A DNA stretch of 64,000 nt, from the IMG/VR virus record IMGVR_UViG_3300028146_000008, positions 30,369-94,368 of that record; one strand, written 5' to 3'. Numbering within the stretch: the first letter of the stretch is position 1; the number at the start of each line of letters is the position of its first letter. A program made the translations under genes and the position numbers. This document shows positions 2,687-58,862 of the stretch, in pieces. Below the pieces are notes generated by a model, which ran no database searches, was not told the origin of the DNA, and saw only the letters and a program-made list of their open reading frames with translations. The stretch is from a virus.

Positions 2687-3067
2687 TTATCTTTGATCGA
2701 GAATGATTGCTTCGATCACTTCTTGATCTTGTAATTCTTCTTGTGCGACTTTCAAACGGACATCGGCAAGATGATTCTGTTTTTCAAAAGTGACTTGGCC
2801 GCGAAGACTTTTGTAGAACTCGTTCATCGCATGGGCGATAGTCATGGATGTGGTTTGTTTCTTCTCTTCCGTGGGGTCGCACTCCATAGCGGCGTTTCGA
2901 GCTTTGACGATTTCAAGCTTCATCAGCTTGTCTAAAGCGCGTGCGTAGGGGGACTGATCCCCTGCCATCAAATCCATCTTCTCGGAGTCGGTTAGCTCAC
3001 TCGGAGGGCTGAACATTAGGCGTGGGTCGGTTTGTTGGGGTCGGGCGAATGCCTCGGATCCATTCAC
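2687..3067 (-). CDS. Hypothetical head-module protein
   Basis: 126-aa helical ORF with GGAG SD, between portal and scaffold. Confidence 0.6.
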   Translation of the reverse strand: MNGSEAFARPQQTDPRLMFSPPSELTDSEKMDLMAGDQSPYARALDKLMKLEIVKARNAAMECDPTEEKKQTTSMTIAHAMNEFYKSLRGQVTFEKQNHLADVRLKVAQEELQDQEVIEAIILDQR

Positions 3068-3082
3068 TTTGTGAAGTACTCC

Positions 3083-5209
3083 TTATCCAACCATCTGGCC
3101 GGAACCGAGGCCCATCGTTGGCGCGTTAGCACCTAGAAGGGCTTCTGGTTCGGCGGATTTTTCTGCGATGACTCGGAAGATGTCTCGAACCGCTCTGGCT
3201 TCGTTTTCCTGGTCAATTAGCTGTTGGCTCTCTTGCATCTTGCGGGCGTCCGCTTGCTGGTCTATTTGCGCCTTCATTTGCATTTGAGCGGCAGGCGAGT
3301 TAGCTTGCAGACGCTGAATTTCTTCCGCACTCATATCTTCAATAATGCTGTAGTAGTTCTTCCAGCCTGAGATGTCGTGAACCATGTGGAAGAGTTCTTC
3401 CACGTTCACTTTCTTCTGGTTCACTTCGTTCAACTGTTTCATCAGCGGTTGATTCTCGAATAGCTGCAGCATCATAAAGAGTGACTGCGCCATCTGAGAT
3501 TTCGCGGCTAGGTGGGACCCGGCCAATACTTCAAATTCCGCAGGCGAATTCAGGAAATCGCCGGAATCAAAAGTCGCCCATTCTTTTCCAAAATGCTCGC
3601 CGAGAAGTTGCTTGATATACGCCATCGGCATCTTCTCTTTGTTGAGAGTATGCATTTTGTAAATCAAGGGCTCGTAGACTTGGCGCACAAACGCTTCGGC
3701 GAATCCACCGATGCGGTTCATCGTGGCTTGGATGACGCCCGCTGCGCCCGTGCCGGTACGCATTGCGCCGCCACGAGTGGTGGAAGCGCCCATCGTAAGT
3801 TGCTGGTTTGCGCCCGAGGTCATTTCGACCCGGCTCTGGGAGAGAGCGATTTGCTGTACGACTTCCGCAGGAATGTTCGGCTGCTGCATTAAGGTCAGAG
3901 CCTTAGTGGTGTCGCCGTCTACCGCGATAATCCCGCCGATTCGTTGTCTGATTTGTTGTTCCTGAACGTTAGCCCCGCGAGAGCGAACGAACATAGGATT
4001 GACAATGAGATCAGCCAAATCCAGGCAGGCGTTGATGAGACCGGCTTGAACACGTTGTTCGACCCCGATAACGCGACCAAGACCCAGACCCCAAAAAGCG
4101 TTAGGTATGTTCCACCAGTTGACACTAAGGAATGGAATACATCCGAACTCGTTTGGCTCATTACGGATTACCTTGACGCGCTGGAGAACGGTGATTACTT
4201 TGTCGTTGTCCCAGCGTTCCAGAACTTCCAGCGGTTCATCGAGTGGATCCGCAGTAGATGCTTCAAACTGAGGCTTCGCGTGATGGACCTGGGTGGTTCC
4301 CTGGCTCCCCATCATTTCGGTGCTTCCACCGACCGTCGCAGCTTCCTTGGGCCTCTCGAACCAAGATTTAATCGTGGCTTCGCTCGGGAGGTCGTACCGC
4401 TTTTTCAGTACCTGTTTGCCGTTTTCGGTGGTGACGTACTCTTCATCCTTCAACTTAATGAGGTCTTTGTACGTCAGATACATTTTGTCGATAACAAACT
4501 TCGCTTTGCGAATGTCAGGGACTTTTAGTCCCGGATCGACGAGTGTGAACCGGATATCTTTTGCTTCAAATGTGGTGCGATGAACCTGTTTGTCTTTTTC
4601 TACTTTTTTGTACGTTTGGGAGTCTTTGGTTTCGATAACCGTGGGTTCGGCTCCGGGGACTGGGAGGGCGGCAATCTTAACCCCCTTCTCCAACGGTTCA
4701 TATTTCGTTTCTTTTTTGACAAAGCTTTCAAAGCCCCACTTCCAAATACCAGTGCCAAAGTTCAGGGCCGAGAAAAGGCCCCAATCGGTTTCTTGGCGGA
4801 AACCCATCTCATCTTGTTCGATTGAAATCAGCGACCGGATCGCTCGGGTTATGTTTTCGCTTCTGGACGGGCGTGGTCGCAGAATGAAGGCCGGTGTTTC
4901 GTAAAACAGACCGTTCATCACCTGGGGGTGGATGGAGTTAACTGTTTCGGCGACTACGAACCGGTTCACATTGGAACGGGGGACCGTAGTTTGCTCCCAC
5001 ATCCGGATAGACGGTGGGGATTGATACAGCCCATCGGCTTCGCGCCACCGCAGCGTCCAATAATTTGTTTGCAGCCAAGCCTCTGTGTTGATCGTATCGT
5101 TCACGCAGAGTTGAAGTGCGCCGTCCTTAGTTACTTCGCTAGGACTTTTAAATTGGCTTACTTCCGGCTGCTGATTAGGATTTGCTGGATCGGGCGTGAC
5201 GTGGGCCAT
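3083..5209 (-). CDS. Portal protein (P22-like)
   Basis: 708 aa, follows terminase; EVLERW, IPF...FWGLG segments and Q-rich C-terminus typical of P22-type portals. Confidence 0.8.
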   Translation of the reverse strand: MAHVTPDPANPNQQPEVSQFKSPSEVTKDGALQLCVNDTINTEAWLQTNYWTLRWREADGLYQSPPSIRMWEQTTVPRSNVNRFVVAETVNSIHPQVMNGLFYETPAFILRPRPSRSENITRAIRSLISIEQDEMGFRQETDWGLFSALNFGTGIWKWGFESFVKKETKYEPLEKGVKIAALPVPGAEPTVIETKDSQTYKKVEKDKQVHRTTFEAKDIRFTLVDPGLKVPDIRKAKFVIDKMYLTYKDLIKLKDEEYVTTENGKQVLKKRYDLPSEATIKSWFERPKEAATVGGSTEMMGSQGTTQVHHAKPQFEASTADPLDEPLEVLERWDNDKVITVLQRVKVIRNEPNEFGCIPFLSVNWWNIPNAFWGLGLGRVIGVEQRVQAGLINACLDLADLIVNPMFVRSRGANVQEQQIRQRIGGIIAVDGDTTKALTLMQQPNIPAEVVQQIALSQSRVEMTSGANQQLTMGASTTRGGAMRTGTGAAGVIQATMNRIGGFAEAFVRQVYEPLIYKMHTLNKEKMPMAYIKQLLGEHFGKEWATFDSGDFLNSPAEFEVLAGSHLAAKSQMAQSLFMMLQLFENQPLMKQLNEVNQKKVNVEELFHMVHDISGWKNYYSIIEDMSAEEIQRLQANSPAAQMQMKAQIDQQADARKMQESQQLIDQENEARAVRDIFRVIAEKSAEPEALLGANAPTMGLGSGQMVG

Positions 5210-5541
5210 TATCGAGTGATCTTTATTCCTGAGAAATCCGCTTTATTTGTGCATTGTTCACAAGGTGCGTATTTCTTCTTCAATTCGTAAAAGACGCTGC
5301 CTAGAAAACCTACGGCCAACGTTTGATAGATGTCGCCCTTACAAAGAATGAGCGAAATCCAAAATCCCGTGCATACGGGGCAATCCCACAACTCTTTAAG
5401 AAGATTTGGTAGCTTCGGCAGGCGGGACTTGAGCTTGTGGGCTAGGCTGCTGTCCACCGCCAAATAGACCGCTTGAGTTTGCGCCAACGAGATCAAAATG
5501 ATTTTTAGCAAGTCGTTCATACGCTTCCTGATTGAATCCAA
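5209..5541 (-). CDS. Small membrane protein (DUF1360-like); true start probably near 5410
   Basis: CPVCTGFWIS motif, hydrophobic segments, C-terminal CxxC. Confidence 0.45.
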   Translation of the reverse strand: MDSIRKRMNDLLKIILISLAQTQAVYLAVDSSLAHKLKSRLPKLPNLLKELWDCPVCTGFWISLILCKGDIYQTLAVGFLGSVFYELKKKYAPCEQCTNKADFSGIKITR

Positions 5542-5761: not shown

Positions 5762-5783
5762 TGTTCCTCTTGGGAGCGTGTAA

Positions 5784-7640: not shown

Positions 7641-7648
7641 GTCTCCTC

Positions 7649-8296: not shown

Positions 8297-8297
8297 G

Positions 8298-11027: not shown

Positions 11028-11488
11028 TCCGGTCTCCGAAGAATGTTAAAGTCTGAACGAAACCCGACGTATTTCCATCCGAGGTCTTTCGCTCGCTTGA
11101 TGGCTTGTGCGGATTTGGTTTGATAGTCTGACATCGCTATTACCTTAGCGCCTGTGGAACTAGCGATTAGAAATTCCGTAAGGCCTGTCTGCAGGTCCGG
11201 TGGGTCCAAGAAAACAGCGTCTACCCACGTTCTGGTGCTCAAGTACCGGATGTGGTCTTGAGTCAGGAAGCGGCAATACTTCGCTGTGTCTTCCCTTTCC
11301 AGTTCGCGGTGAGTGCGAAGTTGATTCTGGAAGTCCAGGTCCACTGAAATGAATTCACTTGTGAACTGCTGCTGTGCGACCCATTTTGCGATTGGCTGCG
11401 TAAACGCACTGCCAGTTTCTACAATCTGTAAACTCTTCTTATCGAACCCGTCTAGGAGTTCGGAGATTTCTGTTTGCAAGGGGTGCAT
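11024..11488 (-). CDS. SAM-dependent methyltransferase-like protein
   Basis: IVETGS, FISVDLD, DAVFLD motifs. Confidence 0.55.
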   Translation of the reverse strand: MHPLQTEISELLDGFDKKSLQIVETGSAFTQPIAKWVAQQQFTSEFISVDLDFQNQLRTHRELEREDTAKYCRFLTQDHIRYLSTRTWVDAVFLDPPDLQTGLTEFLIASSTGAKVIAMSDYQTKSAQAIKRAKDLGWKYVGFRSDFNILRRPE

Positions 11489-13075: not shown

Positions 13076-13085
13076 TTGTTACCTC

Positions 13086-13994: not shown

Positions 13995-14076
13995 GTTGCT
14001 TTCCTAATTTCCTAATTTCCTGATTCCCTATTCACTTTGTGAACTACTGAGGGCAGGCAACGCTGGCCTTAGATGT

Positions 14077-16802: not shown

Positions 16803-17245
16803 ATATGAGGAATGTGGCCTTCGGGTGTGACTTTAAAAAACACACCCTCGGCTAAGAGCTGCCGGATCGCTTCGTCCTGGTCAAACCCTTGCTTCATGCG
16901 GGTGTCAAGTTTGAAAAAACACTCGGGAGCAATCCGCCACGCTATTCCGTCAATGATGGTTTCCATAGAAGGGTTCAGACCCCATTGTTCAGCAAATCGA
17001 CGGCGGGCAGAGAGTCCCAACTGTTACAAATCACGGTCGCCATTTCGGTGGGTTCGAGAAACCATTTCTGTTTGCCGTATACGATACGGGCCAGCTTCGG
17101 GGACATATTTCTAAAAGTCCAAGACAAGCCCGAGGGATCCATCGGACTCAATTGCTCGAACACTTCCACGCCATCTGGCAGAATTAATCTTCGGTGCGCC
17201 ATGTCTCTCTTTCATTTAGTTGTTCACTCAGCGGAGTACTGTACT

Positions 17246-17512
17246 TCACTGTGCGGAGTGACTTAGTTCTCGGCGGACAAGTTCCTGTGCTTCTTCGGTG
17301 TAATCGAACCACTCGTTGTGGCAGCGGATATGTTCTAGTTCACTGTGTAAACAACGTTCGTCTTCTATTTCTCCCGAAATGCGCCCGATCAAATCCAAGT
17401 CATCTGCGTTCTCTCGGAGAAGGAAGTTAAAGCGCCGGTCTACTTCGCTGGCTGATTTCGAGTAACCAATTTTCAAGCGGTTTGTTTTCTGGGCTAGGAT
17501 GAAATAGATCAC
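17246..17512 (-). CDS. GIY-YIG/T5orf172-like protein
   Basis: IYFI...LKIGYS...E..LH...EWF. Confidence 0.75.
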   Translation of the reverse strand: MIYFILAQKTNRLKIGYSKSASEVDRRFNFLLRENADDLDLIGRISGEIEDERCLHSELEHIRCHNEWFDYTEEAQELVRRELSHSAQ

Positions 17513-17961
17513 TAGTTCACTCAGTGAAGTGCTAGGGGACTTGATAATGAGAATTTTCCTTAAAGGTACTCGGGGGGCTCCACCCGGCTAGGCGTACTGG
17601 TACGAATAGGGTCCCCTATCTAATAGTACTAGAACTCTCAGTAGCTATATAACCGTCTGTAACTTACTGATTCAATTGAGCATACCTCGTCAGACGCGCG
17701 GGGAGTATGCAAGGGGTTTCGGATCTATGCGGGGGATTCGAGACATTGCGGCCATGCGAAGAGAATGCGATAAAATACACATAGAGTCGTATGGTAAGTT
17801 ATTGAAAACATTGGCCGATTGTTTTTGAAACCCGCTAACTAACTGATTCGGCGCAAGATGCGTTTATTCGCATGTTAAGTTATTGATAAGATTCGACTTA
17901 AAACTGCAAAAACCCGGCAATATGCGGTTACTTTTAGTAACTAGCTTACTTTGGCCGCGCC

Positions 17962-18357: not shown

Positions 18358-18623
18358 TCTGAGAATAGTCCTGTTTTCGCCTTAGCTCTTTTTGGCCGGG
18401 TTGCCTTAATGCTCGTTAGCTTTTCGAGTGTGGCCAAGAGCTTAATCCTATCTCCCATGCCTAGCGTGTCGGTTTCGAGCAATTCCATAATCTGCCGCGC
18501 GGCGTCCATCCTCATATCCTGCCGTTTGTAGCCTCTGCCGTCCTTGCCGGGTTTCGGGTTTGGTTCGACTACTTCACTAAGCGGAGTGCTTATCTCTTCC
18601 TTTATTTGTTCTATTTCGTCCAT
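18354..18623 (-). CDS. Hypothetical protein (possible terminase small subunit; weak)
   Basis: Small helical protein with basic tail near the putative genome-end region; apparently leaderless. Confidence 0.35.
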   Translation of the reverse strand: MDEIEQIKEEISTPLSEVVEPNPKPGKDGRGYKRQDMRMDAARQIMELLETDTLGMGDRIKLLATLEKLTSIKATRPKRAKAKTGLFSE

Positions 18624-18691: not shown

Positions 18692-18719
18692 TTGACATTA
18701 TTTCTCTATGCTTTATAGT
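18692..18719 (+). promoter_or_regulatory. Sigma70-like promoter for the plus-strand small-gene cluster
   Basis: TTGACA-N16-TATAGT. Confidence 0.6.
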
Positions 18720-18762
18720 TGTCTACTGTAAGGCAGTTCACTAAGCGGAGTGAGGGATATAA

Positions 18763-21081
18763 ATGCAAAATGAATGGATTCGTACTAACCCGGCAATCCC
18801 CCGCGATTGTCTGACGCGCGGTTGCTTGATTACATATCTGGACGAAAATAAGGAATTTTGGCGTGCAGAAGTAGACGCGGTTTTGTCTGACCGCGTTCTG
18901 ACCGTTTATGGTCTCGAAATTCCGTTTTCCATGATTACTTTGGTTCAATCGTAAGACGAGAAGACTAAACCAGTTCACTCACTAAACAGGAGAATAGATA
19001 ATATGACTTGGAAACCGTTTATCGTAATTTGGGCCGTCGAGAAGGATTCTCCCGCGATAACCCGCCGATTGATCTTCTCTCTGCAGGATTTTGACTTCGC
19101 CTATGCCGCGTACAACTCATTCCGTGGCGACGTGGCTATCGGATCTAAGCTCGCTTGCGGGTTTTATCGTACACACCAATTGGTGACGAAAGGAAACTAA
19201 AATGCCCTCTATGCAACTATCATTCTGGCAGTGGTATCAGGTTCTAAGGTCTCATGGGCACTGGAGTATGCTTGAGTCTGTTTGGTACGCTTTGTACCTG
19301 AAAGGGTTAGTTCGATGATCACGAAACACACGCCCGGACCTTGGGAAACCGTATTTGAAGGGCATCGTCTATCCGTTTGGTCTGAAGGATACGGTTTCGT
19401 ACACTCGCATGAAGTACCGCAAGTAAACATAGGTGCCACACAAACCGCGAACGCTAACGCGCGTCTTATCTCTGCTGCGCCTGAATTGCTGCAGGCATTG
19501 CGCGACTTGCAAAAAGAGCTTCGCGACGCCATAAAACTAGACGTTAAAAAACACTATTCCTTAATGGTTGCCGATGCTTGTGCGAGTAAGGCAATCGCCA
19601 AAGCAGAAGGGAAAGACTAATGAAACGAACTGTTTGTATCACACTCCCCGACCTAGCATGGCCAGTTACACTCGAACAAACGGGAATAGACCGCTTTACC
19701 GTGACTTACGGGAAACAAGTCAAAAGCGGATTGCGGTATGGGCAAGCGGCAACAGAACTAGGTGCATGTATCATGCACGCTCTTGCTTGTGACGGAAAAT
19801 TAGACAATCGTGAGAAAGGCGAGAAGTAATGTCTAACCCCTATACCGTCGAATCCTTGCGCCAGTATGTAGGGTTAACTGGTTTGTTGTCTTCGGACAAA
19901 CTACAGTTTAACGTTTTGATTCTAGACGCGAAAGTCAGTTACGGGAATTCTAGGTTTCTTGTAATACCTGTAAGCGGATCCGGGGAAGTCTGGGTAGATT
20001 CTAGTCGGGTTTCGGTTTCGAGTACTTCACTTAGTGAACGGCTGTAAAATGTTTTCAATTCGTGCGGCCAGCACGTTAAACACGGAGGAAGTTATGTATA
20101 CGACTCAAAAGCAGGTTAGGGAAGCATTCTGGGATGCATGGCGCGATGGGCAGTTTAAGGGTATGAACGTCACACCTCGACTCATTACCGATTACAGCGG
20201 CAAAGGCAAAATGCACAACACAGACACGCGCACGGCATTTTGTGATTTCGTGGATATGCTTTTCAAGTCTGGCCAATTGGCTGAAGGTCTGGCGGAAAGA
20301 GTGACGCTATGAGCACGCGAAAAGAACGTCACGAATTCATTGCAATGCTTTATGAGCACTCACCGCACAAGTGGCAGGAATCTGACCCGCCGATGTTCAT
20401 TCAACGGCAAGCGGAATTGCTCATGCGCTACAGCGCGACGTTGCACCGTCTCGCGGAAGAACTGTGCAATGGCTATCAGGATTACAAAGGCAACTGGGAC
20501 GAAAAACGTACAACTTTGGCCGAAAAGAAGCAAGCTCGAATCGAACAACGTGCGGCAGAGGTAGCAGCGGCCATCGGCGGAAAAGTTATCACTGGCGGGG
20601 ATCCGCGCGGCTGTGTGCTCAAAGTTGTGTTCCCAGACGGCTATACAAATGACTGGGGGAGAGAAGGAATCTGCGTACCAGCCTAAGTATTCCACACTCT
20701 TACCCTATAGTGACAGGTAGGGTAAGTACGGGGAGTATTCAGTTCCCTTGTAAAATCAAACTGGAGGAAACGCTAATGGGCACTCAGAAACTAGGACGTA
20801 GCAGAGCGGCGAAGCGAGCAAAAGACATACACTTTCATAGTGACAATATGCTAGGTACTGACGGGCACCCGGCTATAAAGGTTAAGTACTATGGTTCAGC
20901 TCCGAGCGAATACGCTTGGGATGCAACCGTAGAGGATTTTTGGTTTAGCGCAAAGATGATCGCGCACGAACATGGATACTCAGGCGTTTTTAGCGAGGGC
21001 CGCTCCGGTGGCTGGCTTGTTCCCTTCTCTCAATATCAAAACGGCAAGCTCAAAACACGCGGCCAAAGGACAGGTACCTAA
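18763..21081 (+). other. Cluster of about 8 small plus-strand hypothetical genes (18763, 19003, ~19315, 19620, 19829, ~20094, 20309, ~20776), early/host-takeover type
   Basis: Tightly packed 60-125-aa ORFs with SD sites, opposite in orientation to the flanks; one has KHTPGPW...ANARLISAAPELL, common in phage early genes. Confidence 0.65.
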
Positions 21082-21855: not shown

Positions 21856-22068
21856 TTGGAATCCCCTGGGCTATGCCGTTCTTTTCTACGATTGTTACTT
21901 TAACCGTTTTAAAACTGTATTTGTTCTCGTACCCGCGCAAACACAGACGTTGCTTCACTAAGTGAATAGCTTGCTCGGGATCGTCCGTGATGACGGTCCA
22001 AGTTATGAAATTCGTGGAGAATCGTTTACCGAGTGAAGTGATTGTGACCAGGTAGCCAGTTTCAGGAT

Positions 22069-22860: not shown

Positions 22861-23695
22861 TGCTTTCCTTCTGTTGCTCGTTAATACGAGGAACGTATTC
22901 GATATGCTTCATTACAGTCAGGTCCGGGCAATTGTGCGTTTCGTCTTTGTAGAAAATCGTTTCGCACACTGGACAAATCAAATAATCCTTCAACTCAATC
23001 ATGCCCGACTGATCTCCTCTTGCCTGACTTGTTCTATTTCGTTCACTGAACAAAATGGCAAGAATTTGCGTCCGCCTTCGTAGACCAGCATCCCTGCTAC
23101 TAAATCCCCACCCTCGGGCTCCGGGACTTGTTCGAGGAATAGTGTTACCCGATTGTCCTCGAATAAATGTTTTTGAAGATTCCACTTCAATCCTGCAGAG
23201 CGAAGCGAGTGCTTAACTTTTAGCCACGCTTCACTCTCTGATTGGATCTCAATTATCATTTTTGAATCGTAGCACAATTCGTGAACTAATTCAAGAACTA
23301 ATTAGCTCGGAGATGTCATCGCGTAACCCCTGGAGGTCCACTTGCGCGGATTCTTCGGGACTTTGGGCATAGACTTAGGGATCGCACCCATTCCAGTCTT
23401 GGGCGATTCCTCGCTGCGCGTGCCGTTGTGCTTTAGCTGGCCTTCGCCTGTGCGGGATTTGCCGATTACTTCAAAGTACGTTGCGGGTGTTTGCCGCCAA
23501 CTCTTGTTTACGCCTTTGGGATTGCCACTTCCGGTTTTCGACTTCGGTACTGGTTTCATTGTGTTTCTCGTTTGTTTCTGTAATTTCGTTGCGTGGCACT
23601 TCACTTGTGAAGTGGCTTGTGGAATGACCTATTTCAGTAAATTGGCCAATTTCAGCAACTGTTGAAATGGCATGTTTTAGTGAAATTCATTGTAT

Positions 23696-25512: not shown

Positions 25513-25516
25513 ACTG

Positions 25517-25770: not shown

Positions 25771-26013
25771 CTAAGCTGGGTTCTTCAGATGCAGGCCCCC
25801 GCCTGCTGTAATTTTCACGTCCACTGGTTTAGCTGGCGGCGCGTTGAGAAATACTTCTTCCCTTCCTTCGGGTTCTGGTTCGCTAAAATCCTGTTCACTT
25901 AGTGAACGGTCGGGCGTCATGGGTGTTGCACCCGGACCCAGCGGACCCATAGGTGTGGATGTCTTCAAAACTTCTTTGTCAGACAATGCGCCGATTGCTC
26001 TGTTGAACATCAT
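25771..26013 (-). CDS. Small Pro-rich protein ending NPA
   Basis: C-terminus GLHLKNPA. Confidence 0.65.
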   Translation of the reverse strand: MMFNRAIGALSDKEVLKTSTPMGPLGPGATPMTPDRSLSEQDFSEPEPEGREEVFLNAPPAKPVDVKITAGGGLHLKNPA

Positions 26014-35748: not shown

Positions 35749-35793
35749 CGCCCCTGAGCGTTTGCTGATCCGAGATCGTACTTCACTAAGTGA

Positions 35794-35834
35794 ACGGGCG
35801 AGAGGGACGCGGAACCTCTTGCCCGTCTTTTTTT
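35794..35834 (+). terminator. Rho-independent terminator
   Basis: ACGGGCGAGAGG...CCTCTTGCCCGT followed by a T-run. Confidence 0.75.
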
Positions 35835-36847
35835 TGGCTAATTCCCTAGTACTCGCGTAGGACTTCCATTTTCGCCTTGACTTCGACAAAAATTCATTTA
35901 CCCTAGCTGTCAGCGGGCGTGCGTAACTTTTTGTGGCAAGTACGTACTATAACTTATGAGACGCACTAGTACCGAAGATGGAGGACAGAAGTTCCTTAGT
36001 CTTCGTCACAAAGTACCATTTGCGTCTCTTGCCCGTACCTTCACTCTGGAGGCGGGCCAATGTGTAGTCACAATGATTCTCGTAATCCGTTCTTGGGCCA
36101 GTCAAAGGGCCAGCTTCAGAGCGCCCTGTTGCAGCGTCTAGCAGCATTGGCTGATCTACGTTCCGAGTCCCGCCGATATAGGGACCGGTTATCCTCGGTT
36201 CGTTCAAAACTCCAAGAGACTCAGCATGAGATTGAGCAGATCCAGTTTTCCTTGGAGCAAGAAAAAGTCGTCGTTTTCCCTCTTCCTCTGAAAGTTCCTG
36301 AATCCGAGGAGCGGGGTGAACGAATCCTTGGTCGCTGGGGGCAAGTGACTTATCAGACTCAAGAATCCCCAAAGCCCAAATCGCAACGTCCGCCAACCAA
36401 GATAAGAAGCCTTTCACGATGAAGTACGCCAGTCCTAAGCAAATCGCCAGAGTTGGCCCGGAGCCCATTTTTTCAATCCTCCCGTTAAGATATCGGGGAC
36501 ATTTCGTTAGTGATATAACCGTAGTCTAGTACCTACACGGTGTCAAGGAAATAAATGTCTTTAGTGTCCCTTTAATAAGTACTGTTCTTTCGCAAACTTG
36601 TAGTACTAACGTTACTCCCTTCCGCGCATCCCAAAAAGTTTCGCGATTAAGTAAGCTAAGATCGCTACCAATACCGCGAAATGTGTCCACATCGGGTAAC
36701 CTTCCAACGCCGCGCCGATTACTGTCACCACGAGCGCCAAAAGCAATGTGAGTTGTATTTTACCCATCGTCTTTGTTTCCTTCATCTACCGCCGCGTCAC
36801 GAATATCAGCAAGTTCAGCCTGACTGTCTTCTAATACTTCTTTCTGT

Positions 36848-37330
36848 TCACTCAGTAAACGGATCATCGCTTCCTGAACTGGCCGGTCCTGAATCCTCCA
36901 GTAAATCATCAGGGATATTTCCGAGAGCAGGGCTAATAGGATCAGGATTTCCACTACTTGCATCAGGAGTTGCATCTTGGGCCTCGGGTAGCTGGGGTTG
37001 GTCCATGTTCTCGATAATGTGTTGAATCTGGTTCGGATCGGCGGGCAGTATTTCAAATGAAACCCGGTTAATCGGGGCGGGCATGGTAAAGTTCTTGACT
37101 GGAACATTCGCGCGGAGAAAGATTTTCACTTCTTGGCCGATTCCGATGGTGTAGGTCCCGATGGTCCGGAGTCCGTCTCGCTTACCGCTCAAAGCGTATA
37201 TTCCGAAACCTTGGGGAACTAGCTTCCCGCGCTCTACTACTTCGCTGTTCTCGATCCGTACCCAATCCAGGTCCTTGGTATCGGTGATGTACAGATTTCC
37301 GTTATCCTCTGTTTGAAACTGTAGATGCAC
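36848..37330 (-). CDS. Hypothetical protein with acidic tail
   Basis: 160-aa ORF in operon. Confidence 0.55.
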   Translation of the reverse strand: MHLQFQTEDNGNLYITDTKDLDWVRIENSEVVERGKLVPQGFGIYALSGKRDGLRTIGTYTIGIGQEVKIFLRANVPVKNFTMPAPINRVSFEILPADPNQIQHIIENMDQPQLPEAQDATPDASSGNPDPISPALGNIPDDLLEDSGPASSGSDDPFTE

Positions 37331-42844: not shown

Positions 42845-43230
42845 CTATTTCAATCACGTCTGCTGGCGAGGCTACCTCGGTCGTGTAATTATTTGGTTTT
42901 TCCAGTTCACTTTGTGAGGTAACGAACTTGGAGTGTTTTTCAAAAGGGTGGCCGTGGGTCGGGCAAGAGAGTCTTCGCGGCCAGCGTTTGGAACCAGGGA
43001 CGGGTTCGATTTTTAATTCGCATTGATCCGTGCATTCACTTGTGAACCGGAATTGGCTCATGGTCTTCCGTCCTCCCAACCTGCGGCGCGGCCCGCCTCC
43101 CACGCTTTGAATAGTGCATAGATAGTTCCTGAGTATTCAGAATCCCAACCGTCCGGATCGAATCGCTTGTACCAAAAAAGAAACTCATCACAGACTTCGA
43201 TGTTTTCGTTCTTCCACTCCAGAAATCGGC

Positions 43231-43947: not shown

Positions 43948-44643
43948 TCACTCCTCCTCTTGGTGCGTGGCCAAGTATTCCATGCTGAGTCTCAGCAACG
44001 CTTCCTTGGTTCTCACGGATTCTTTGACGCCTTTTTCAACCACGGGGTCGGTTCTTAGTGCTGCGCTAAAAGCCCCGTTTATTACTTGGCGTTCTTCGTT
44101 CGTTACAAAGAACCCTGATAGTTCATACCAAGTACCACTTTGTTCTTCCTGTGTCAAGTTATGATTTTGTGCTACGGACTTCCGTACATCAGAAACCGTC
44201 TTTGTCGGGTCCAATGCTTCCTTGATTACTTCGCTATTTGGCGGGAATCCGAGTTGCTGGGTTGCTTTTTTAAGCACATCCAGTTTAGAAATCCCCATTT
44301 GGTTCATTTGTTCTTCTTTTAAGTATGGCCGCATTTCGCGGACACTCGAAAAATACCGCCAGAGCTGGGTCTTGCCCCGATGGTACTTCGCCTGCAGGGA
44401 CTCCATGTATTTGCTCCAGCTCGGAAAGCCTGCTTCGCGCCAGAGTTCTTTTTCGCTCACCTCGGTCAGAAGCAACCCGAGCTTGGCGTAGCCGTGCTCC
44501 AACTTGTCCTCGGCGGCCAGCAGTTTTTGGATCAGATCGTCAATTTGGTCGAAAATAGTAATTGCCTCGGTTTCTAGGATTTTTGTCAATCCCGGTCCAT
44601 AAAAAGTCGGTTCACTTTGTGAAGTACTCAATTCCGTGCTCAT
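43948..44643 (-). CDS. Hypothetical helical DNA-binding-like protein
   Basis: AAGGAGG SD; LWREAGFPSWSKY, MGISKL. Confidence 0.55.
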   Translation of the reverse strand: MSTELSTSQSEPTFYGPGLTKILETEAITIFDQIDDLIQKLLAAEDKLEHGYAKLGLLLTEVSEKELWREAGFPSWSKYMESLQAKYHRGKTQLWRYFSSVREMRPYLKEEQMNQMGISKLDVLKKATQQLGFPPNSEVIKEALDPTKTVSDVRKSVAQNHNLTQEEQSGTWYELSGFFVTNEERQVINGAFSAALRTDPVVEKGVKESVRTKEALLRLSMEYLATHQEEE

Positions 44644-50305: not shown

Positions 50306-50991
50306 CTCGGCCTCGATAGTGAAATAGACTGTTTTTGATCTGGTTCAATGTCATCGTAAAGAATAGGGATTCGTTCCTTGAATTCTTTGAGCATCGGGAT
50401 AGAAATTTTCTTCATGTCGGGGTGAGTTTCCTTTGTGGTCCTCATCAGAAAAAACCAACGCCATGCTCTTAAATTCCCACTCATCGCGATTGTGGCTGCA
50501 GTGCAAGTAGGCAGAACCGACCGCGCGGCTTGCGGGGGTTGGCCGTTTTTCAAAAGGTCCAGATAAGTCTGTTCACTTGTGAACATGGTGTGCTCCCAGT
50601 CGTACCTTGGGTGGCCAATCTTCACGGATTCCATGTTCCAGGTTGGTTCCACGAATTCGATTTCCCGTTTCCCGTAGTTCACGAACCGAGTCGATTCCTG
50701 GGTGAACGAAAAATGCCGGTGGCGCACGATTTCATGGGTGATGCCCCGATCCGTGCGGATAATTACGCTGGCGGATGCGTGCTCTGTGACGCTCCAATCG
50801 CCCTTAGTTAGCACGACCGCGTGGATGAACCGTTTCCAAGAATCTTCCGTCTGGGCATCTTCGGAGCGGTGCGAGATCCGGGCAAAATGCTCGATCTTTT
50901 TCAAGAGCGCGATTCCACCCTCATTATCACCAGGGTCTAGGAACTCGAAACTAGGGCTGATTATTTTCACGCGGGCAAGTCCCCCATGCAC
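50302..50991 (-). CDS. thyX: Flavin-dependent thymidylate synthase
   Basis: HEIVRHRHFSFTQESTRF; ARSVLP; NLRAW. Confidence 0.93.
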   Translation of the reverse strand: MHGGLARVKIISPSFEFLDPGDNEGGIALLKKIEHFARISHRSEDAQTEDSWKRFIHAVVLTKGDWSVTEHASASVIIRTDRGITHEIVRHRHFSFTQESTRFVNYGKREIEFVEPTWNMESVKIGHPRYDWEHTMFTSEQTYLDLLKNGQPPQAARSVLPTCTAATIAMSGNLRAWRWFFLMRTTKETHPDMKKISIPMLKEFKERIPILYDDIEPDQKQSISLSRPS

Positions 50992-51510: not shown

Positions 51511-51511
51511 A

Positions 51512-51955: not shown

Positions 51956-53646
51956 TGGAACATCACCATCTGTCGTTGTAGTTTTTCCACTTGCTCCGAT
52001 CCTTTCGTTAGTTGTGCTTTAATTTCTGGTGTTAGGTGTGGTTCCACGAATTGACTTGGGGACCCTGCGAAAGAAATCCGAAGACGGGTTTTTGGCCTAG
52101 TAATGGCTACGTACCAAATTCTGGACTCCTCGGCTAAGTCCCCTTTTTTGTGTGGCAGTAATCCGTTCTCTACTCCGATTACGAATACGTTAGACCATTC
52201 AAGGCCCTTCGCAGAGTGAATTGTGCACAGCGTTAGTGCATTTTTATTCTTACGTGAGGCGTGGGCAGCTTTGCGGGCATGGTTTAGGAATTCACCGAGT
52301 GAACTGAATTTTTTGGCTATTCCGATCACCGTTTTGATGTTGGTCAGTGCAAAATTCTCGTCATCTGAAAAATCATCGTTGCTGTAGAGTTCGTCCAGTT
52401 TGGCGTGCCGCACAATCATGTCGAGAGCCTTTTCTGGTGGCTGCGAGCGGATCGCGCGGCGATATGGTTCTACTAATTTCTGGGGGTACTTCTCGGGCGT
52501 CTGATTTCCCATGCAGAACGCCGCGAGACTTGTGAGCGAGTTTATTTCCGGTTTTGTCCAGAGCCCGGATTTCCCGAGCAACTGAAAACGAATGTTGTGG
52601 GAGAGAGCTAGGGATTCGTAAATCCCAATCTGATCGTTAGTGCGGGCTAAAATTGCAGAATTCCCCGCGTCCGTTGCGGCCACTGATAAAGTTGCTTCGG
52701 CTTCTTCGGCGCTGTTTGGATACATCCGGAACTCGATCTCGGGACCGACCGGATTGCTGGTGCGAATGTTTTTAGTTAGTTCGTTTTGAATCGGCGCGTT
52801 TAGGCGTGAGAACTCCACCACGTTTTTCTGGCTGCGAAAGTTTTCCGGTAAAATCAGGGTCGTAGCTCCTGGAAAATGCTTCGCGAAGTCCAAAAGAATG
52901 TGCGGATGCGACCCTCTAAATGCGTAAATGCATTGTGAAAAATCCCCGACAACGAAGAGATTTTTATGACGTTCGGTGATTAGTTGGAGCAACCGAACCT
53001 GTAACTCGTCTGTATCTTGAAACTCATCAACCATGCAGAATTTTATCTGCCAACGGTCTCGGACTTCCGCGCTCTTTTCCAAAATGTCCACAGATCGCGC
53101 AATAAAATCATCGAAATCGAGCATCCCGCCGTCATGCAGCAGTGACTCGTATTTTTCAAAAACGGCGGCATATAGCGGATCGTTCAAAGGGTCATCTTGC
53201 GCTTGTGCGGGAGAAATTCTTAGTCGCTTCCACTGCGAAATCGCTGCTTTCACTTCGTCAAATTGTTTTCGGCGGACGCCATTCTCTTTCATGGCTTGGA
53301 GAAGTAGTTTGTATAGAACTGGTCCGTCTGGAAAAGGTTCCGAAGATAGGCCGTAAGGCAGAAACCGAGCTTCTTTTTTAATCAAGTTGAGGCAGAAAGA
53401 GTGGAACGTTCGGAACCCGCCTCTGATGCTCTTATCGGGATCGAGTTTGAGACGGCGCACTAGGTTTTCAGCCGCTTCCCGAGTGAAACTCAGAACGAGT
53501 AGTTCGTCTTGCGGGCACCCCTCGTCCAGAATCTGACGGGTTCGTTGTTCCAACACGGTCGTTTTCCCGCTGCCCGCCGTAGCTTGTAGGCACCAGTAGC
53601 CCGTTCGCGTTGTTATGGCTTCAAGTTGTTCTTTGTTGAGATTCAA
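51952..53646 (-). CDS. UvrD/Rep/PcrA helicase
   Basis: ATAGSGKT, VDEFQD, VGDFSQCIYAFRG, TIHSAKGLEW, YVAITR. Confidence 0.95.
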   Translation of the reverse strand: MNLNKEQLEAITTRTGYWCLQATAGSGKTTVLEQRTRQILDEGCPQDELLVLSFTREAAENLVRRLKLDPDKSIRGGFRTFHSFCLNLIKKEARFLPYGLSSEPFPDGPVLYKLLLQAMKENGVRRKQFDEVKAAISQWKRLRISPAQAQDDPLNDPLYAAVFEKYESLLHDGGMLDFDDFIARSVDILEKSAEVRDRWQIKFCMVDEFQDTDELQVRLLQLITERHKNLFVVGDFSQCIYAFRGSHPHILLDFAKHFPGATTLILPENFRSQKNVVEFSRLNAPIQNELTKNIRTSNPVGPEIEFRMYPNSAEEAEATLSVAATDAGNSAILARTNDQIGIYESLALSHNIRFQLLGKSGLWTKPEINSLTSLAAFCMGNQTPEKYPQKLVEPYRRAIRSQPPEKALDMIVRHAKLDELYSNDDFSDDENFALTNIKTVIGIAKKFSSLGEFLNHARKAAHASRKNKNALTLCTIHSAKGLEWSNVFVIGVENGLLPHKKGDLAEESRIWYVAITRPKTRLRISFAGSPSQFVEPHLTPEIKAQLTKGSEQVEKLQRQMVMFQ

Positions 53647-53945: not shown

Positions 53946-54314
53946 CTAAAAAGGCGGATCATCGTCACTTGGTGTTTCATCGAATTCACTTTGTGAAGTG
54001 CTTCTCTCAACCTTACTGAGAAGGTCCACCTTATCGGCCACGACTTCCAGAACCGAGCGGGTGTTTCCATCGCGGTCTTCCCAGCTACGTTGTTGCAGCC
54101 GCCCGGTAACGGCTACCTGTGACCCCTTAGCGGTGTATTTCTGGACGATCTCGGCGGTTTTTTCCCACGCTTGGACCGGGATCCAAGAAGTTGTTTTACG
54201 GTCCCCGTAGCCAAAATCCACGGCGATGGTGAAGTTAGCTACGGTTTTGCCCGAGGTCGTGTTGCGAACTTCGGGGTCCTTACCAAGACGGCCAATTAAA
54301 CTGACAGAATTCAC
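53946..54314 (-). CDS. ssb: Single-stranded DNA-binding protein
   Basis: LIGRLGKDPEVR...DDDPPF tail. Confidence 0.95.
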   Translation of the reverse strand: MNSVSLIGRLGKDPEVRNTTSGKTVANFTIAVDFGYGDRKTTSWIPVQAWEKTAEIVQKYTAKGSQVAVTGRLQQRSWEDRDGNTRSVLEVVADKVDLLSKVERSTSQSEFDETPSDDDPPF

Positions 54315-55234
54315 TTCACTCCTCCTTCAATAAGTTCGACCACGTTCTGGGGTTCGGTTTGGACCAAGGGTTCGTACTTAGCAAAAAAGCCTTCCCATTC
54401 GGCTACAGTTAGTTCTGTTAATTCTTTCCTGTTTACTGTAGACAAAAGGAACTGCTTTAGTTTCGCGCCTACTTGGAGACCCTTGGATGCCCGGAGTCCT
54501 GCTTTTTCGAGTGGGATTTTCAGGTTCACGGCCCGAGCGGTGTACTGGTCGAATACGGACTTGTCTGGAACATCCCCAGAACTGGCTACAGGGGCGCTGG
54601 CAGGGATTTGGGCCTTGGGTATGCCGTTATCCTTAACCGGTGCCGGATCGGGGCTAGAATCGGCTGGGGGCGCGTTCTGGATAGGTTTAGCAGCAGGTTT
54701 GGACTCCCCTTGCTTCGCTGGAGCTGTGTCCATCTTGGGGGGTTTCGGACGCCGTACTTCACTTTGTGAAGCACCCTGATTCTCACGTTGAGACTCGGCT
54801 GCCGCGTTTCCGTCGTCATCTTCTTCGGCTACTGCGCCGACTTGAGGGCCGTAGGCATAACGGCGGGCATAGGTGATAGCCGAACCGATACTCTGAGCGT
54901 CGAACTTGTCCGCGCGTCCGGGCATCCCCGTGGGTAGCAATAACTCAACTTCCGCGAACTCCCCGGATTTGTGGGCCAACCGCGATACCACCCCGGCCAA
55001 CCGATCCCGCACGATAGGTAGCTGAATTACGGCCAAACCGTGCTTTGCGAGCGCCGGTTGGGTGGCCGCCACAACGTTCTGCAAATCTGCGTATTTTGAG
55101 CTGGTGTGCGGGTTCGTCTTGTCCTTCTTGATCGGCGTGTATTCCTGAGTCGCCGACGCCAATGCTCCAAAAAGCTCCCCCGTCGTCGGGCTGAACTTCA
55201 CTGACTGAACCACTGGTGCCAGTTCTTCACTCAC
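54311..55234 (-). CDS. ERF-family ssDNA annealing protein
   Basis: KYADL, QSIGSAITYARRY, EDDDG. Confidence 0.9.
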   Translation of the reverse strand: MSEELAPVVQSVKFSPTTGELFGALASATQEYTPIKKDKTNPHTSSKYADLQNVVAATQPALAKHGLAVIQLPIVRDRLAGVVSRLAHKSGEFAEVELLLPTGMPGRADKFDAQSIGSAITYARRYAYGPQVGAVAEEDDDGNAAAESQRENQGASQSEVRRPKPPKMDTAPAKQGESKPAAKPIQNAPPADSSPDPAPVKDNGIPKAQIPASAPVASSGDVPDKSVFDQYTARAVNLKIPLEKAGLRASKGLQVGAKLKQFLLSTVNRKELTELTVAEWEGFFAKYEPLVQTEPQNVVELIEGGVK

Positions 55235-55801
55235 TCGGGGTCTCCTTCTTTGTGACTTCGATTCCCGAAACTTCGTAGAAAATCCCGTTTTTCAGGTTCT
55301 TCTCGAACGTTTCCCGGTCGTAGTTTCCGATTTGCAGACCCGAACTGAGTTCAAAAACGACCACCATATTCGGCTCGTGTTCAAAAGGTCGGTAGTACGC
55401 CGCGACTTTGCGGTTCAATGTAATATGCTTGTTCTCTTCCATTCAATCCTCCACGAACAAGCCTAGCACTAAAGATTCTAAATGTCAATCTTGTTTTTTC
55501 ATCTTATTTGTGCTATTATTTCTGCATGGAAGATACCTGCTATTTCTGTGGTGCCGAGAACGCTCAATATGCCCGCCGAGAAGACGGGGGATCAAAGCAG
55601 TACTTTCCCGCGTGCGAAAAATGCGCCCGCAAACCTTATTCACACAGTGAACAGGAGAGCCATGAAAAAGTTTAGTTTCTATTTTTGGGCGTCACTGATC
55701 TGTTTTGTTGCGGTTTGGTTTTCTCAGAAAGACGAGATTAGACAAGTTGGCCTCCTTCTTCTGGGATGGCAGTTCGCGATAGCAGACGATCTCAAAAATA
55801 A

Positions 55802-57991: not shown

Positions 57992-58391
57992 GATAGTGCG
58001 CCGCAGCAATGAGAATTTCGGGAGCATCTTTGAAAGCACCTAGCCCAGTATTACAGCGCCCACAGAGGAGACCTCGAACTTTTCCTGTCTTGTGGTCATG
58101 GTCCACGTTATATCGGTCTGCAGGTTTTGTTTTGCAGATAGCGCACAAGTCACCCTGTTGGGCCACCATTCCTTCATATTGGTCTACAGTTAGATTAAAC
58201 TTTGATTTAATATGATAAAAATATCCTCGGGAACGCTTATAACGCTCTCTTTGATACTTATTCCAATCCTCTCGATTTTTGGCTCTCCACTCTCGCATAT
58301 ATTTAGTTTCTCTTTTTCGATATTTATTCGGGTTTTTAGCCCTCCAGCGTCTCATGTACGCGCGTTTATCTTCTGGATTTTTATGAGGCAT
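57912..58391 (-). CDS. Endonuclease VII-like homing endonuclease
   Basis: CAIC...VDHDHKTGKVRGLLCGRCNTGLG. Confidence 0.88.
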   Translation of the reverse strand: MPHKNPEDKRAYMRRWRAKNPNKYRKRETKYMREWRAKNREDWNKYQRERYKRSRGYFYHIKSKFNLTVDQYEGMVAQQGDLCAICKTKPADRYNVDHDHKTGKVRGLLCGRCNTGLGAFKDAPEILIAAAHYLTSCNNGSRTLPLPESSLEPNLSETP

Positions 58392-58421
58392 TGCCTTTCT
58401 CTAACGGGGATTTGAAGGAAG

Positions 58422-58862
58422 TTATTTCGTGGCGGTGCCCAAGGGTACTTCACTTGCGGAGTGCTCAGATTTCGCTTTAACTTTGGAGTTCAATGCGTCC
58501 ATCAATAGCGCGTGCGCCCCAACATTTTTTGGCCGGTCGTCAATTAAACCGTCGTTAGCTTGGGCGTCCAGAATGATCGCCATGCACGCCATAGCGTGGC
58601 CAAGATGATGAACTCCGCTGTCGGATGCGGTTTCTTCCCCCTCGAACCATGCATCTAGGTGGCGTTTTGCCGCATCAATGTAGATGCTCGCCTGAACTGC
58701 TTTTTCCCGCCAGTTGTAGGGACCGTATTTATTCGCGCCGTCCATCATAGCGTGGGCACCGTGAGCTAAACCGATGGCCGGGAATTTGGAGAGGGAAACT
58801 TTTTTTGCGCCGATCAAATCTTTAGGGTTGGGACCAGTAGCTTTCGAGAACGAACCGGACAT
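58422..58862 (-). CDS. dATP/dGTP diphosphohydrolase domain protein (DUF5664-like)
   Basis: GANKYGPYNW, AAKRHL, DSGVHHLGHA. Confidence 0.8.
   Translation of the reverse strand: MSGSFSKATGPNPKDLIGAKKVSLSKFPAIGLAHGAHAMMDGANKYGPYNWREKAVQASIYIDAAKRHLDAWFEGEETASDSGVHHLGHAMACMAIILDAQANDGLIDDRPKNVGAHALLMDALNSKVKAKSEHSASEVPLGTATK

Follow-up and report, generated by a model that had tools for sequence, protein, structure and literature searches.

Which protein, if any, reads a short palindrome that is scattered over a whole phage genome, inside genes as well as between them? This question is raised by the viral record IMGVR_UViG_3300028146_000008 of IMG/VR, a contig of 94,368 bp (~85% complete) from an uncultured soil phage, in whose right-hand 64 kb (positions 30369-94368; 64,000 nucleotides, here called the window) an earlier reading, named the original prediction in the following, had noticed dispersed copies of the palindrome TTCAC-N2/3-GTGAA. 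Site coordinates are given in window numbering, negative numbers denoting contig positions upstream of the window, and the phage itself is called G000 where it has to be distinguished from its relatives. The palindrome turned out to be a real, strongly selected, clade-wide DNA word, and with somewhat better than even confidence we regard its copies as putative docking sites of a DNA-binding protein that has two-fold symmetry and acts on the whole genome.

Perfect copies were counted and compared with several null models. In the window, TTCAC-N2-GTGAA was found five times and TTCAC-N3-GTGAA 16 times, while 0.08 and 0.10 copies, respectively, were expected from dinucleotide shuffles, and none of 100 shuffles matched the observed counts. 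The 21 perfect palindromes of the window thus compare with ~0.2 expected by chance, and the 25 of the whole contig (six N2 and 19 N3) with ~0.2-0.4. Spacer length is restricted: spacers of 0, 1, 4, 6, 7 and 8 nt between TTCAC and GTGAA have zero copies in the whole contig and N5 has a single one. Each of the 19 sites listed by the original prediction was perfect, 52291 and 55639 having been overlooked, and its nine near-copies were all present, four of them with one mismatch (17339, 36847, 38537 and 42906) and five as GCGGA variants. One-mismatch copies were also in excess (22 vs 8.5 +/- 3.1 under a 3rd-order Markov null), and an extended 12-position model, GTTCAC..GTGAAC with at most two mismatches, detected 37 sites with N3 (~4 expected) and 14 with N2 (~5 expected). 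Weaker copies included, ~40 sites per genome stand above the background of this model. An excess over a codon-aware null, as expected by the original prediction, was confirmed by synonymous-codon shuffling within each gene, which gave a mean of 0.51 in-gene sites and a maximum of 3 in 500 runs compared with 11 observed. Chance and codon bias as origin of the word are therefore ruled out by dinucleotide shuffles, Markov null and synonymous-codon shuffling alike.

Close relatives were gathered by protein and pattern scans. The palindrome is present in G001 (34 kb, 70-90% nucleotide identity), L015 (6.3 kb), L028 (2.5 kb) and L026 (a 15.2-kb locus of a 17.2-kb contig), and in all three relatives at 73% portal identity, namely G006 (95.5 kb, 97% complete), G007 and G008. 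In G006, 23 perfect cores were found, all with N3 and with the consensus GTTCAC-WWW-GTGAAC (GTTCAC..GTGAAC on both sides in 14 of the 23), and ~50 sites with at most two mismatches were counted vs ~3 expected. G007 was at one point considered a lineage with a degenerate motif, which was dropped since most of its contig is the structural region, in which the sites of G000 are sparse too. The nearest cultured phage as judged by the portal protein is Tunturi_3 of Tunturiibacter (Acidobacteriota), a 97.6-kb podovirus with 36.5% identity, and related portals occur on contigs binned with metagenome-assembled genomes (MAGs) of Bryobacteraceae and Sulfotelmatobacter, so that an acidobacterial host of G000 is likely. 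Neither the palindrome nor any other enriched dispersed one was found in G009 (43% portal identity), Tunturi_3, G010, G011 and the MAG-binned contigs, and no other dispersed palindrome in L027 and L031-L034.

The word is kept in a genome that otherwise purges palindromes. From the contig, 15 of the 64 hexamer palindromes are absent, including AGATCT, CACGTG, CTCGAG, GTCGAC and GCATGC, although ~23 copies of each would be expected, and 11 more are present once; absent non-palindromic hexamers do not occur. The interrupted palindromes CAC-N4-GTG, CCTNAGG, GCTNAGC and GAG-N3-CTC are absent as well. G001, G006, G007 and Tunturi_3 show overlapping but different sets of absent palindromes and G009 almost none. 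This purge is classical restriction-site avoidance, and against it a perfect palindrome in 25 copies is clearly selected for. The word itself was also considered as a DraIII-like restriction site (CACNNNGTG), but outside the motif CAC-N3-GTG shows no depletion (38 copies altogether), which gives no pointer to restriction.

The anatomy of the sites indicates what kind of signal is selected. Both half-sites have the same flank preference: S is favoured at -4, 45 of 50 half-sites have a pyrimidine at -3, and T never occurs at -1; the GTAC flanks noticed by the original prediction are present on 8 of the 50 half-sites, and TAC on 10. From ~4 bp outward on each side of the site, the information content is that of the background. 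The spacer is W-rich (AAA/TTT and TAA/TTA for N3, AA/TT for N2) and changes between orthologues (TT>TG, ACA>ATA, and N2<>N3 at one site). In five copies (17223, 17245, 18573, 18737 and 58449), GCGGA replaces GTGAA in the right half as a recurrent two-base variant. The 45 nt on both sides contain nothing conserved at a constant distance from the site, and hence no partner resembling a -10 element. Base-pair covariation was not detected in the flanks: Watson-Crick pairs at offsets 1-6 are at or under expectation (5 observed vs 10 expected at offset 3), and no arm variants with compensating changes are enriched. As an isolated RNA hairpin, the N3 form would reach -1.8 kcal/mol and the N2 form 0.0, that is, remain unfolded. 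Symmetric flanks, missing covariation and a weak hairpin together argue for a sequence that is read with two-fold symmetry on duplex DNA and not for a structure.

Three other identities of the word were also rejected. A mobile palindromic element resembling repetitive extragenic palindromes or miniature inverted-repeat transposable elements is ruled out, as there are no shared long flanks and orthologues differ by substitutions, not by insertions. An intrinsic terminator is ruled out by the stem of 5 bp and the general absence of a T-run. A known RNA family was dismissed as well, Rfam matching four tRNAs and nothing else.

The comparison of orthologous sites was bimodal, with conserved islands on one side and lineage-specific sites on the other. 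In the islands at 14031 and 54758, 9 of 10 core positions are kept between flanks of 57-65% identity, a pattern of purifying selection on the DNA itself. In contrast, at three G001 sites and at 11354 the other lineage matches only 5-7 of the 10 core positions, whereas the flanks are 72-85% identical. Within such well-aligned flanks, the word has been written or erased by several clustered protein-altering changes, and, as judged from the aligned sequences, these lineage-specific gains and losses alter amino acids and show a DNA word in conflict with protein sequence. Despite the purge of palindromes, the word is kept even inside the genes for SSB, ERF, ThyX and endolysin at the cost of amino acids. 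At site -2635, N2 and N3 spacers interchange at one orthologous position. With the deeply diverged G006, whose DNA is no longer alignable, nine site contexts are common vs 3.1 expected (P<0.001), including the SSB tail, two places in ERF and the 5' end of a gene for a 231-amino-acid (aa) protein.

The original prediction had further stated that the asymmetric forms all face the same way. This is correct for the window, where the A-rich spacer strand is the sense strand and all in-gene copies of G000 are in the AGT-GAA frame, but it does not hold for the motif as such: site -2635 has the opposite orientation and G006 is mixed. On the sense strand of G006, AAA and TTT spacers are found 9 and 6 times, ATA and TAT 4 and 2 times, and ATT and AAT 4 and 3 times, and the two open frames (SxSEQ and VHxVN) are used about equally by its sites within genes. 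Unbiased frames and spacers in G006 indicate that the word is read independently of the direction of transcription or translation; the facing bias in G000 is best explained by gene strand, composition and tolerated peptides. A motif without polarity is evidence against promoters, oriented stoperators and RNA elements.

For placement of the sites, our own gene calls (85% coding) were used. Of 38 sites, 17 are intergenic although non-coding DNA makes up 15%, five lie within 60 nt of a gene 5' end, three near a 3' end and 13 in the middle of genes (Table 1). The in-gene sites fall in tolerant places such as the endolysin N-terminus, the SSB linker, the end of the ERF domain and the disordered start of the 231-aa protein, and the recurring peptides S-Q-S-E, F-T-S-E and S-L-S-E that had been pointed out before are indeed encoded at in-gene sites. 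The density peak described at 17.2-18.8 kb corresponds to six sites in 1.5 kb, near-copies included. Of 13 strong sigma70-like promoters, two have a site nearby (60052 and 18737) and the other eleven have none.

Table 1. Palindrome sites, promoters with sites nearby and the gene of the candidate binder, in window coordinates.
Feature	Position	Strand	Context and conservation
Perfect N3	3063..3075		after portal stop codon; GTG of the site is the start codon of the next gene; 10/10 in G001 and L015, synonymous changes starting right after GTG; indel or homology break adjoins
Perfect N2	11354..11365		mid-gene, F-T-S-E; specific to this lineage; in G001 5/10 core bases, flanks 72% identical
Perfect N3	14031..14043		intergenic; core 9/10 in G001, flanks 57% identical
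Two tandem TTCAC-N3-GCGGA variants, 22 bp apart	17223..17257		3' end of T5orf172/MUG113-like gene (Pfam)
One-mismatch site	17339..17351		
Perfect N3	17516..17528		directly upstream of T5orf172-like gene; core 9/10 in G001
GCGGA variant	18573..18585		5' part of 89-aa gene (S-T-P-L-S-E)
Strong sigma70-like promoter TTGACA-16-TATAGT	18692-18719	+	GCGGA-variant site 18737-18749 downstream in early-operon leader; orthologue of 18737 in G001 is a perfect copy
Perfect N3	20026..20038		intergenic, within + strand gene cluster
Perfect N3	21954..21966		intergenic
Perfect N2	23600..23611		intergenic
Perfect N3	25894..25906		within small open reading frame
Perfect N3	29388..29400		intergenic; G006 has a site in the same context
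Perfect N3	30375..30387		codons 3-7 of endolysin gene (M-S-T-S-Q-S-E)
Perfect N2	33301..33312		intergenic
Perfect N3	33563..33575		near 3' end of 82-aa gene; context common to G006
Perfect N3	34713..34725		final A of the site is the A of a + strand ATG
Perfect N3	35782..35794		between stop codon of 35350-35748 and the intrinsic terminator of that gene
One-mismatch site	36847..36859		context common to G006
One-mismatch site	38537		
Perfect N2	43035..43046		one-mismatch site close by at 42906-42918
Gene of 231-aa protein	43948..44643	-	tentative candidate binder
Perfect N3	44611-44623		in the disordered N-terminal 24 residues encoded by the 231-aa protein gene
Perfect N2	50572..50583		mid ThyX (F-T-S-E); core 10/10 in L026, spacer change synonymous
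Perfect N3	52291..52303		helicase gene; atypical CGA spacer; core 5/10 in L026; not conserved, may be due to chance or of recent origin
Perfect N3	53985..53997		disordered C-terminal linker of SSB (S-T-S-Q-S-E-F); core 10/10 in L026 and L028, flanks 63% identical; G006 has a site in the same context
Perfect N3	54758..54770		end of ERF domain, border of conserved and diverged sequence; context common to G006
One-mismatch site	55197..55209		5' end of ERF gene; context common to G006
Perfect N3	55639..55651		10 nt upstream of Shine-Dalgarno sequence and ATG heading the + strand PolA operon; kept in L026 and L028 with a spacer change; homology ends 2 bp past the site
N2 GCGGA variant	58449..58460		
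Sigma70-like promoter TTGACA-17-TACAGT	60036..60064	-	-35 hexamer is the left half of one-mismatch site TTGACAAAGTGAA (60052); 92% conserved in L026; ATG 7 nt past the -10 hexamer, may give a leaderless mRNA

From the observed selection on the word, its symmetry, its conservation and its turnover, we infer that it is bound; who binds it and with what effect can be sketched as follows. The reader would be a sequence-specific protein on double-stranded DNA, acting as a dimer or a dimer of dimers. Each half-site would comprise ~6-9 bp, (S-Y-N-V)TTCAC in G000 and GTTCAC in G006, and the two halves would be set apart by the W-rich spacer of 3 bp or, in the G000 lineage, also of 2 bp. The ~40 sites of a genome would form one genome-wide set, of which some may be regulatory (on the -35 hexamer, in the early leader, on or beside start codons), while the remaining ones would occupy places where the sequence permits it, namely intergenic DNA and stretches encoding disordered protein tails and linkers. 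The role might be global control or organisation of the phage chromosome, comparable to that of KorB in plasmid RK2 or of the reader of the Cluster O repeat (see below). Selection at the DNA level and dispersal away from promoters fit a genome-wide DNA-binding protein better than classical operators. To this extent the reading of the original prediction, a DNA-organising protein and not ordinary operators, is indirectly supported, sites being near only two of the 13 promoters; its more specific suggestions are not, the packaging role being without support and partition and roadblock repression meeting the difficulties given below.

Several points weigh against such a protein. A binder was not identified: scans of ~100 proteins with Pfam and PHROGs, in which many small open reading frames (ORFs) had no match, recognised no repressor, helix-turn-helix regulator, ParB or ParA. 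A rigid dimer usually does not fit both 2-bp and 3-bp spacers. Since most strong sigma70-like promoters have no site, a simple logic of repressor and operator is not evident, and the two-base GCGGA variant is not accounted for. In addition, contig ends and homology breaks at the sites suggest that a physical or recombinational event happens there too.

Among the non-structural proteins that G000 and G006 have in common, the 231-aa protein stands out, as a tentative lead to the reader and not a finding. It is 68% identical in G006, where a site occupies the same 5' position of the gene. The gene is a neighbour of the primase-helicase operon, with a single small ORF between it and the primase-helicase gene, and this position is seen in distant relatives as well. 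An AlphaFold2 model built from 28 homologues reached a mean predicted local distance difference test score of 83.6, with the first 24 residues disordered, and in this model residues 47-162 resemble DNA-binding domains of the ParB family. Foldseek gave weak matches, several of which are the DNA-binding domains of P1 ParB, SopB and VirB. In an independent all-against-all structural search, seven of the top ten matches were of the ParB type: KorB 8qa8 (Z 6.4), ParB 6s6h (6.3), Spo0J (5.5), SopB (5.1), VirB (5.0), a KorB domain (4.9) and P1 ParB (4.6), with root-mean-square deviations of 3.4-5.3 A over 90-107 aligned residues. The ParB/Srx CTP-binding N-terminal domain is absent from the model. 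This assignment, too, has its counter-evidence: Z scores of 4.6-6.4 can arise by chance among helical proteins, PDB and Pfam profile searches gave no match on the sequence level, and homologues with 36% identity occur in G010 and G011, which have no dispersed palindrome.

The binders proposed before fared worse. For neither 35350-35748 nor 18354-18623 does G006, with its ~50 sites, encode a homologue, and both were rejected as poor candidates; 35350-35748 had no matches in Pfam, PHROGs and ESM Atlas either. The recombinase, also named as a candidate, recognises a different site architecture. The reader is directly testable among the few proteins conserved across the motif-bearing genomes. Besides the 231-aa protein, the non-structural products conserved between G000 and G006 include those of 41628-42200, 33523-33771, 36848-37330, 22069-22860, 21460-21792 and 60800-61150 and a 51-aa zinc-ribbon protein (35036-35191). 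For such work, several hundred uncultured relatives, as judged from 450 portal hits, provide a gradation in which the word is present, changed in its spacer class or absent, and a cultured distant relative on an acidobacterial host exists too.

The palindrome belongs to a known, still unexplained kind of element that is found in a few other phages and plasmids. By analogy, the closest published parallel is the 17-bp repeat of the Cluster O mycobacteriophages (Corndog and relatives), 5'-TGTTCGG-NNN-CCGAACA, a 7-3-7 palindrome with 34 copies, whose spacer is mostly TTT/AAA and of which a third is located in genes; its function is unknown and a dimeric protein has been predicted to bind it (PMC4351075). 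Both words have arms exactly 3 bp apart with TTT/AAA spacers and at least 30 copies per genome of 70-95 kb, of which about a third each is intergenic, near gene 5' ends and mid-gene. Both are denser in the arm with small (early) genes, show no clear polarity and occur in phages that are not obviously temperate, and the outer arm letters TGTTC...GAACA are found in the sites of G006. They differ in the inner arm (CAC/GTG here, CGG/CCG there), in the shorter arms of 5-6 bp and the stable class of 2-bp spacers in the present phage, and in phage lineage and host, which are unrelated; moreover, conservation, turnover and amino-acid cost were measured here. Repeats of this type have been known for a decade with function and binder still missing, and the present clade provides a second, independent example.

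The best mechanistic model is, again by analogy, KorB of the IncP plasmid RK2. KorB is a global repressor of the ParB family that acts on 13-bp OB operators at promoter-proximal, distal and intragenic positions. Its operator is a 6+1+6 palindrome (TTTAGC-S-GCTAAA), to be compared with TTCACT-W-AGTGAA here, and is likewise dispersed over the replicon; the phage, too, has sites in genes and between them, besides the one covering a -35 hexamer (60052) and the one within an early leader (18737), and the top structural matches of the 231-aa candidate are the DNA-binding domains of KorB and ParB. Unlike in RK2, there are ~40 sites instead of 12, the model of the candidate has no ParB/Srx CTP-binding domain, no KorA-like partner is known and most sigma70-like promoters have no site.

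Resemblance to parS had been noted by the original prediction. In the 16-bp parS (TGTTNCACGTGAAACA), the half-sites are contiguous without a spacer and form the core TTCAC|GTGAA. The letters of the half-sites indeed agree, as does the two-fold symmetry, and the sites of G006 extend to (T)GTTCAC, so that a likeness to ParB-parS and Noc-NBS is given; however, only spacers of 2 and 3 occur. True parS was therefore rejected, TTCAC-N0-GTGAA and CACGTG having 0 copies each in 94 kb, and with it the partition idea, for which no ParA or ParB N-terminal domain was found either among the ~100 proteins scanned from the ~85% complete contig. The sites are spread over the whole genome and not clustered like a centromere. 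A different way of tolerating both spacers may be offered by the Omega repressor of inc18 plasmids, which binds WATCACW heptads in arrays of 7-10 at a few promoters. The sub-site TTCAC(W) resembles ATCAC(W), and the centre spacing of 7-8 bp is in the range of ribbon-helix-helix proteins; on this analogy, such sub-site spacing could explain the tolerance of N2 and N3. In contrast to the Omega system, a ribbon-helix-helix gene was not recognised, and the sites are single inverted pairs throughout the genome and not heptad arrays.

An unlikely alternative to a docking protein is that the sites are points at which DNA is nicked or cut, for example by nicks in opposite strands to either side of the palindrome, or at which recombination between related phages is preferentially started or resolved, thereby marking module borders and feeding recombination-dependent replication. 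Two contig ends speak for it. The contig of G001 starts with C|TTCACTAAGTGAA (positions 1-14 of L024), 1 nt outside a complete site that is the orthologue of 18737, and the contig of L015, an independent relative, ends with TTCACTTAGTGAA|A (positions 6282-6295), again 1 nt outside a complete site but at another locus. By symmetry, both ends read as 1 nt, the full site and the rest of the contig. Furthermore, in comparisons of G000 with four relatives, 10 of 70 ends of homology blocks fell within 15 bp of sites vs 1.1 expected, the loci being 3063, 14031, 53985, 54758, 55639 and -2635. The ERF gene is clearly mosaic, and its two parts meet at site 54758: compared with L026, the N-terminal part has ~42% aa identity and the C-terminal part is nearly identical, the high-scoring segment pair stopping at the edge of the site. 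The phage also has the genes for RecA, ERF, SSB, an Mre11-like nuclease, VRR-NUC and HNH.

Several points speak against this reading. The ends of homology blocks are non-independent, and an alignment will be anchored at its end by a conserved island surrounded by diverged DNA. Gene and domain borders are favoured both by the sites and by mosaic junctions. Contig stops at inverted repeats can be technical, caused by fold-back chimeras or by graph branching at strain variation, and the contigs of 94 kb and 95.5 kb were assembled across 23-25 sites. Known phage nick sites are asymmetric and on one strand, and the pattern could have arisen secondarily, from microhomology provided by a word that is conserved for protein binding. 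The contig ends and the broken homology could reflect real breaks, recombination at the common word, branching at strain variation, or an artefact of inverted repeats and alignment anchoring. In a still less probable, more explicit version, breakage would be programmed, with paired nicks just outside the 13-bp word leaving cohesive overhangs of ~15 nt, and with RecA, ERF, SSB and Mre11 using such ends for recombination-dependent replication and for the exchange of gene modules among related phages. After repair, each fragment would keep a full site, as the two contig ends suggest, and homology between relatives would break at site edges. If the breakage or recombination reading were true, the word would be a new kind of signal for module exchange.

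It is quite improbable that the sites represent the regulon of a global regulator of the host, which would time the phage genes or be titrated by the sites. A regulator encoded by the phage was not found in the family scans, inverted pentamers or hexamers with a 3-bp spacer are typical of dimeric bacterial regulators, and the phage's own RecA makes a link to the SOS response conceivable. But three MAGs with related phage contigs, which are not proven hosts, have 7-18 copies in 4.6-6.1 Mb, 1.4-3 times the number of a reversed-pattern control and at a density ~100-fold under that of the phage. Forty sites, including those in the middle of genes, also far exceed the known borrowing of host regulators by phages, and the motif is limited to one narrow phage clade, relatives on similar hosts being without it.

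Stoperators of the L5 type, at which the immunity repressor of a temperate phage on ~30-40 dispersed sites would block elongation by RNA polymerase, are very unlikely. The Cluster A stoperators, read by L5 gp71, are ~25-35 dispersed 13-bp sites in both genome arms, mostly in short intergenic gaps (PMC9283540, PMC6550527), and they share with the present sites the length of 13 bp, the distribution over early and late regions and the position mostly in intergenic DNA or near gene starts. A single phage protein recognises them, and they are gained and lost from one relative to the next. A tyrosine recombinase gene (24931-25512) adjoining the tRNA-Asn gene and the A-rich spacer on the sense strand of G000 would also suit a temperate phage of this type. 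Stoperators are, however, bound by a monomer, asymmetric and oriented with transcription, whereas the present sites are palindromic and without polarity in G006, where the spacer ratio of 9:6 is unbiased. The roadblock repressor of the original prediction, which in its strict form needs asymmetric transcription-oriented sites, fails at the same point. In addition, a repressor-like gene was not found among the ~100 proteins scanned, and 185,579 genomes contained no prophage copy beyond MAG-binned phage contigs. For Tunturi 3, the nearest cultured relative, lytic infection was seen despite a small 'integrase' (PMC11924767).

An RNA hairpin in the mRNA, serving in processing, stability or as a translational operator, is highly improbable, although many sites overlap a start codon or are close to one (3063, 34713, 55639, 30375, 44611 and -20682) and the in-gene copies of G000 share the AGT-GAA frame and A-rich sense spacers. 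The folding energies given above are those of a weak hairpin (N3) or of none (N2), the stem is not extended by the flanks, and neither covariation nor a G-U-tolerant pattern nor enriched compensated variants were seen. G006 uses both frames and both orientations, site 35782 is located past a stop codon, and several sites are mid-gene.

Least probable of all are phage-specific promoters, including hairpin promoters of the N4 style for an unrecognised phage or virion RNA polymerase: the N3 form does match the geometry of the N4 early promoters (5-bp stem, 3-nt loop), the lineage is of a large podovirus type (Tunturi 3) with giant virion-module proteins of 1495 and 1401 aa, the middle and late regions are without sigma70-like promoters and several sites are 10-36 nt ahead of genes, but PHROGs, Pfam and simple catalytic-motif scans found no RNA polymerase, the flanks are symmetric with no element at a fixed distance, G006 shows no orientation bias, many sites are mid-gene, also in the late region, and one lies between stop codon and terminator, and the N2 form is unable to make a hairpin. 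A bipartite promoter of sigma70 type or an activator-dependent one was rejected because of the missing fixed-distance element within 45 nt and the presence of sites near only two of the 13 strong promoters.

Nearly all genes of the phage are located on the minus strand. Recognised products are portal, large terminase, a T7-type primase-helicase, ThyX, helicase, SSB, ERF and a family A DNA polymerase, furthermore a bacterial-type RecA, an Mre11-like nuclease, endolysin, glycosyltransferases and enzymes of nucleotide metabolism; the two giant virion-module proteins are unannotated. The RecA gene (61150-62136, minus strand) is full-length (Pfam RecA, 437 bits) and adjoins the Mre11-like nuclease gene (62133-63395). 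Other recombination or nuclease genes are those for ERF (54311-55234), SSB (53946-54314), VRR-NUC (17962-18357) and HNH (48329-48883). The catalytic domain of the tyrosine recombinase is encoded by a 193-aa ORF on the plus strand, which abuts the tRNA-Asn gene on the opposite strand (region 24931-25601). This tRNA gene, one of four in total, is unusually long with 86 nt, and a 139-aa ORF (24350-24769) precedes the recombinase ORF in another frame. Tunturi_3 also encodes a small 'integrase'.

Some further observations concern DNA next to sites or differences from relatives. The T5orf172/MUG113-type gene (region 17246-17528) is flanked by sites, namely two tandem variants at its stop codon and, 3 nt upstream of the gene, a perfect copy, and with ~68% identity to G001 it is more diverged than the neighbouring genes. 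Around site -2635, a non-coding stretch of 370 bp (contig 27381-27751, window -2987 to -2617) is ~95% identical in G001, well above the neighbouring DNA, and may be a structured RNA or a control region. A 2.1-kb insertion, absent from G000, lies between the terminase and portal genes of G001 and encodes a 594-aa ORF (L024:12168-13952). The early promoter-like sites at 60036-60064 (minus strand), 18692-18719, 35266-35293 and 39539-39567 have a common extended -35 region, TTGACAAA. A 4.9-kb Sulfotelmatobacter MAG contig (L035, G004:C6) contains a 505-bp tandem repeat, each unit of which carries the palindrome AGACG-TTCACTTTGTGAA-CGTCT; this doublet was rejected as a host copy of the motif, being an unrelated tandem repeat with no blastn similarity to the phage.

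An 81-aa protein (28789-29034, minus strand) scored 26.4 bits against the hairpin domain of Acb2/Tad1, just under the cut-off of 27, and may be a nucleotide sponge directed against the defence systems CBASS or Thoeris. Finally, six regions of the window (58422-59346, 50967-51512, 60048-60803, 16122-16781, 26438-28059 and 10437-11027) contain genes of a modification type, encoding the N-terminal domain of a dATP/dGTP diphosphohydrolase, two nucleoside 2-deoxyribosyltransferase-like proteins, a PfkB-like kinase, glycosyl and galactosyl transferases, a pyruvyl transferase and a TylF-like methyltransferase, a gene set that suggests editing of the nucleotide pool or modification of DNA or virion.

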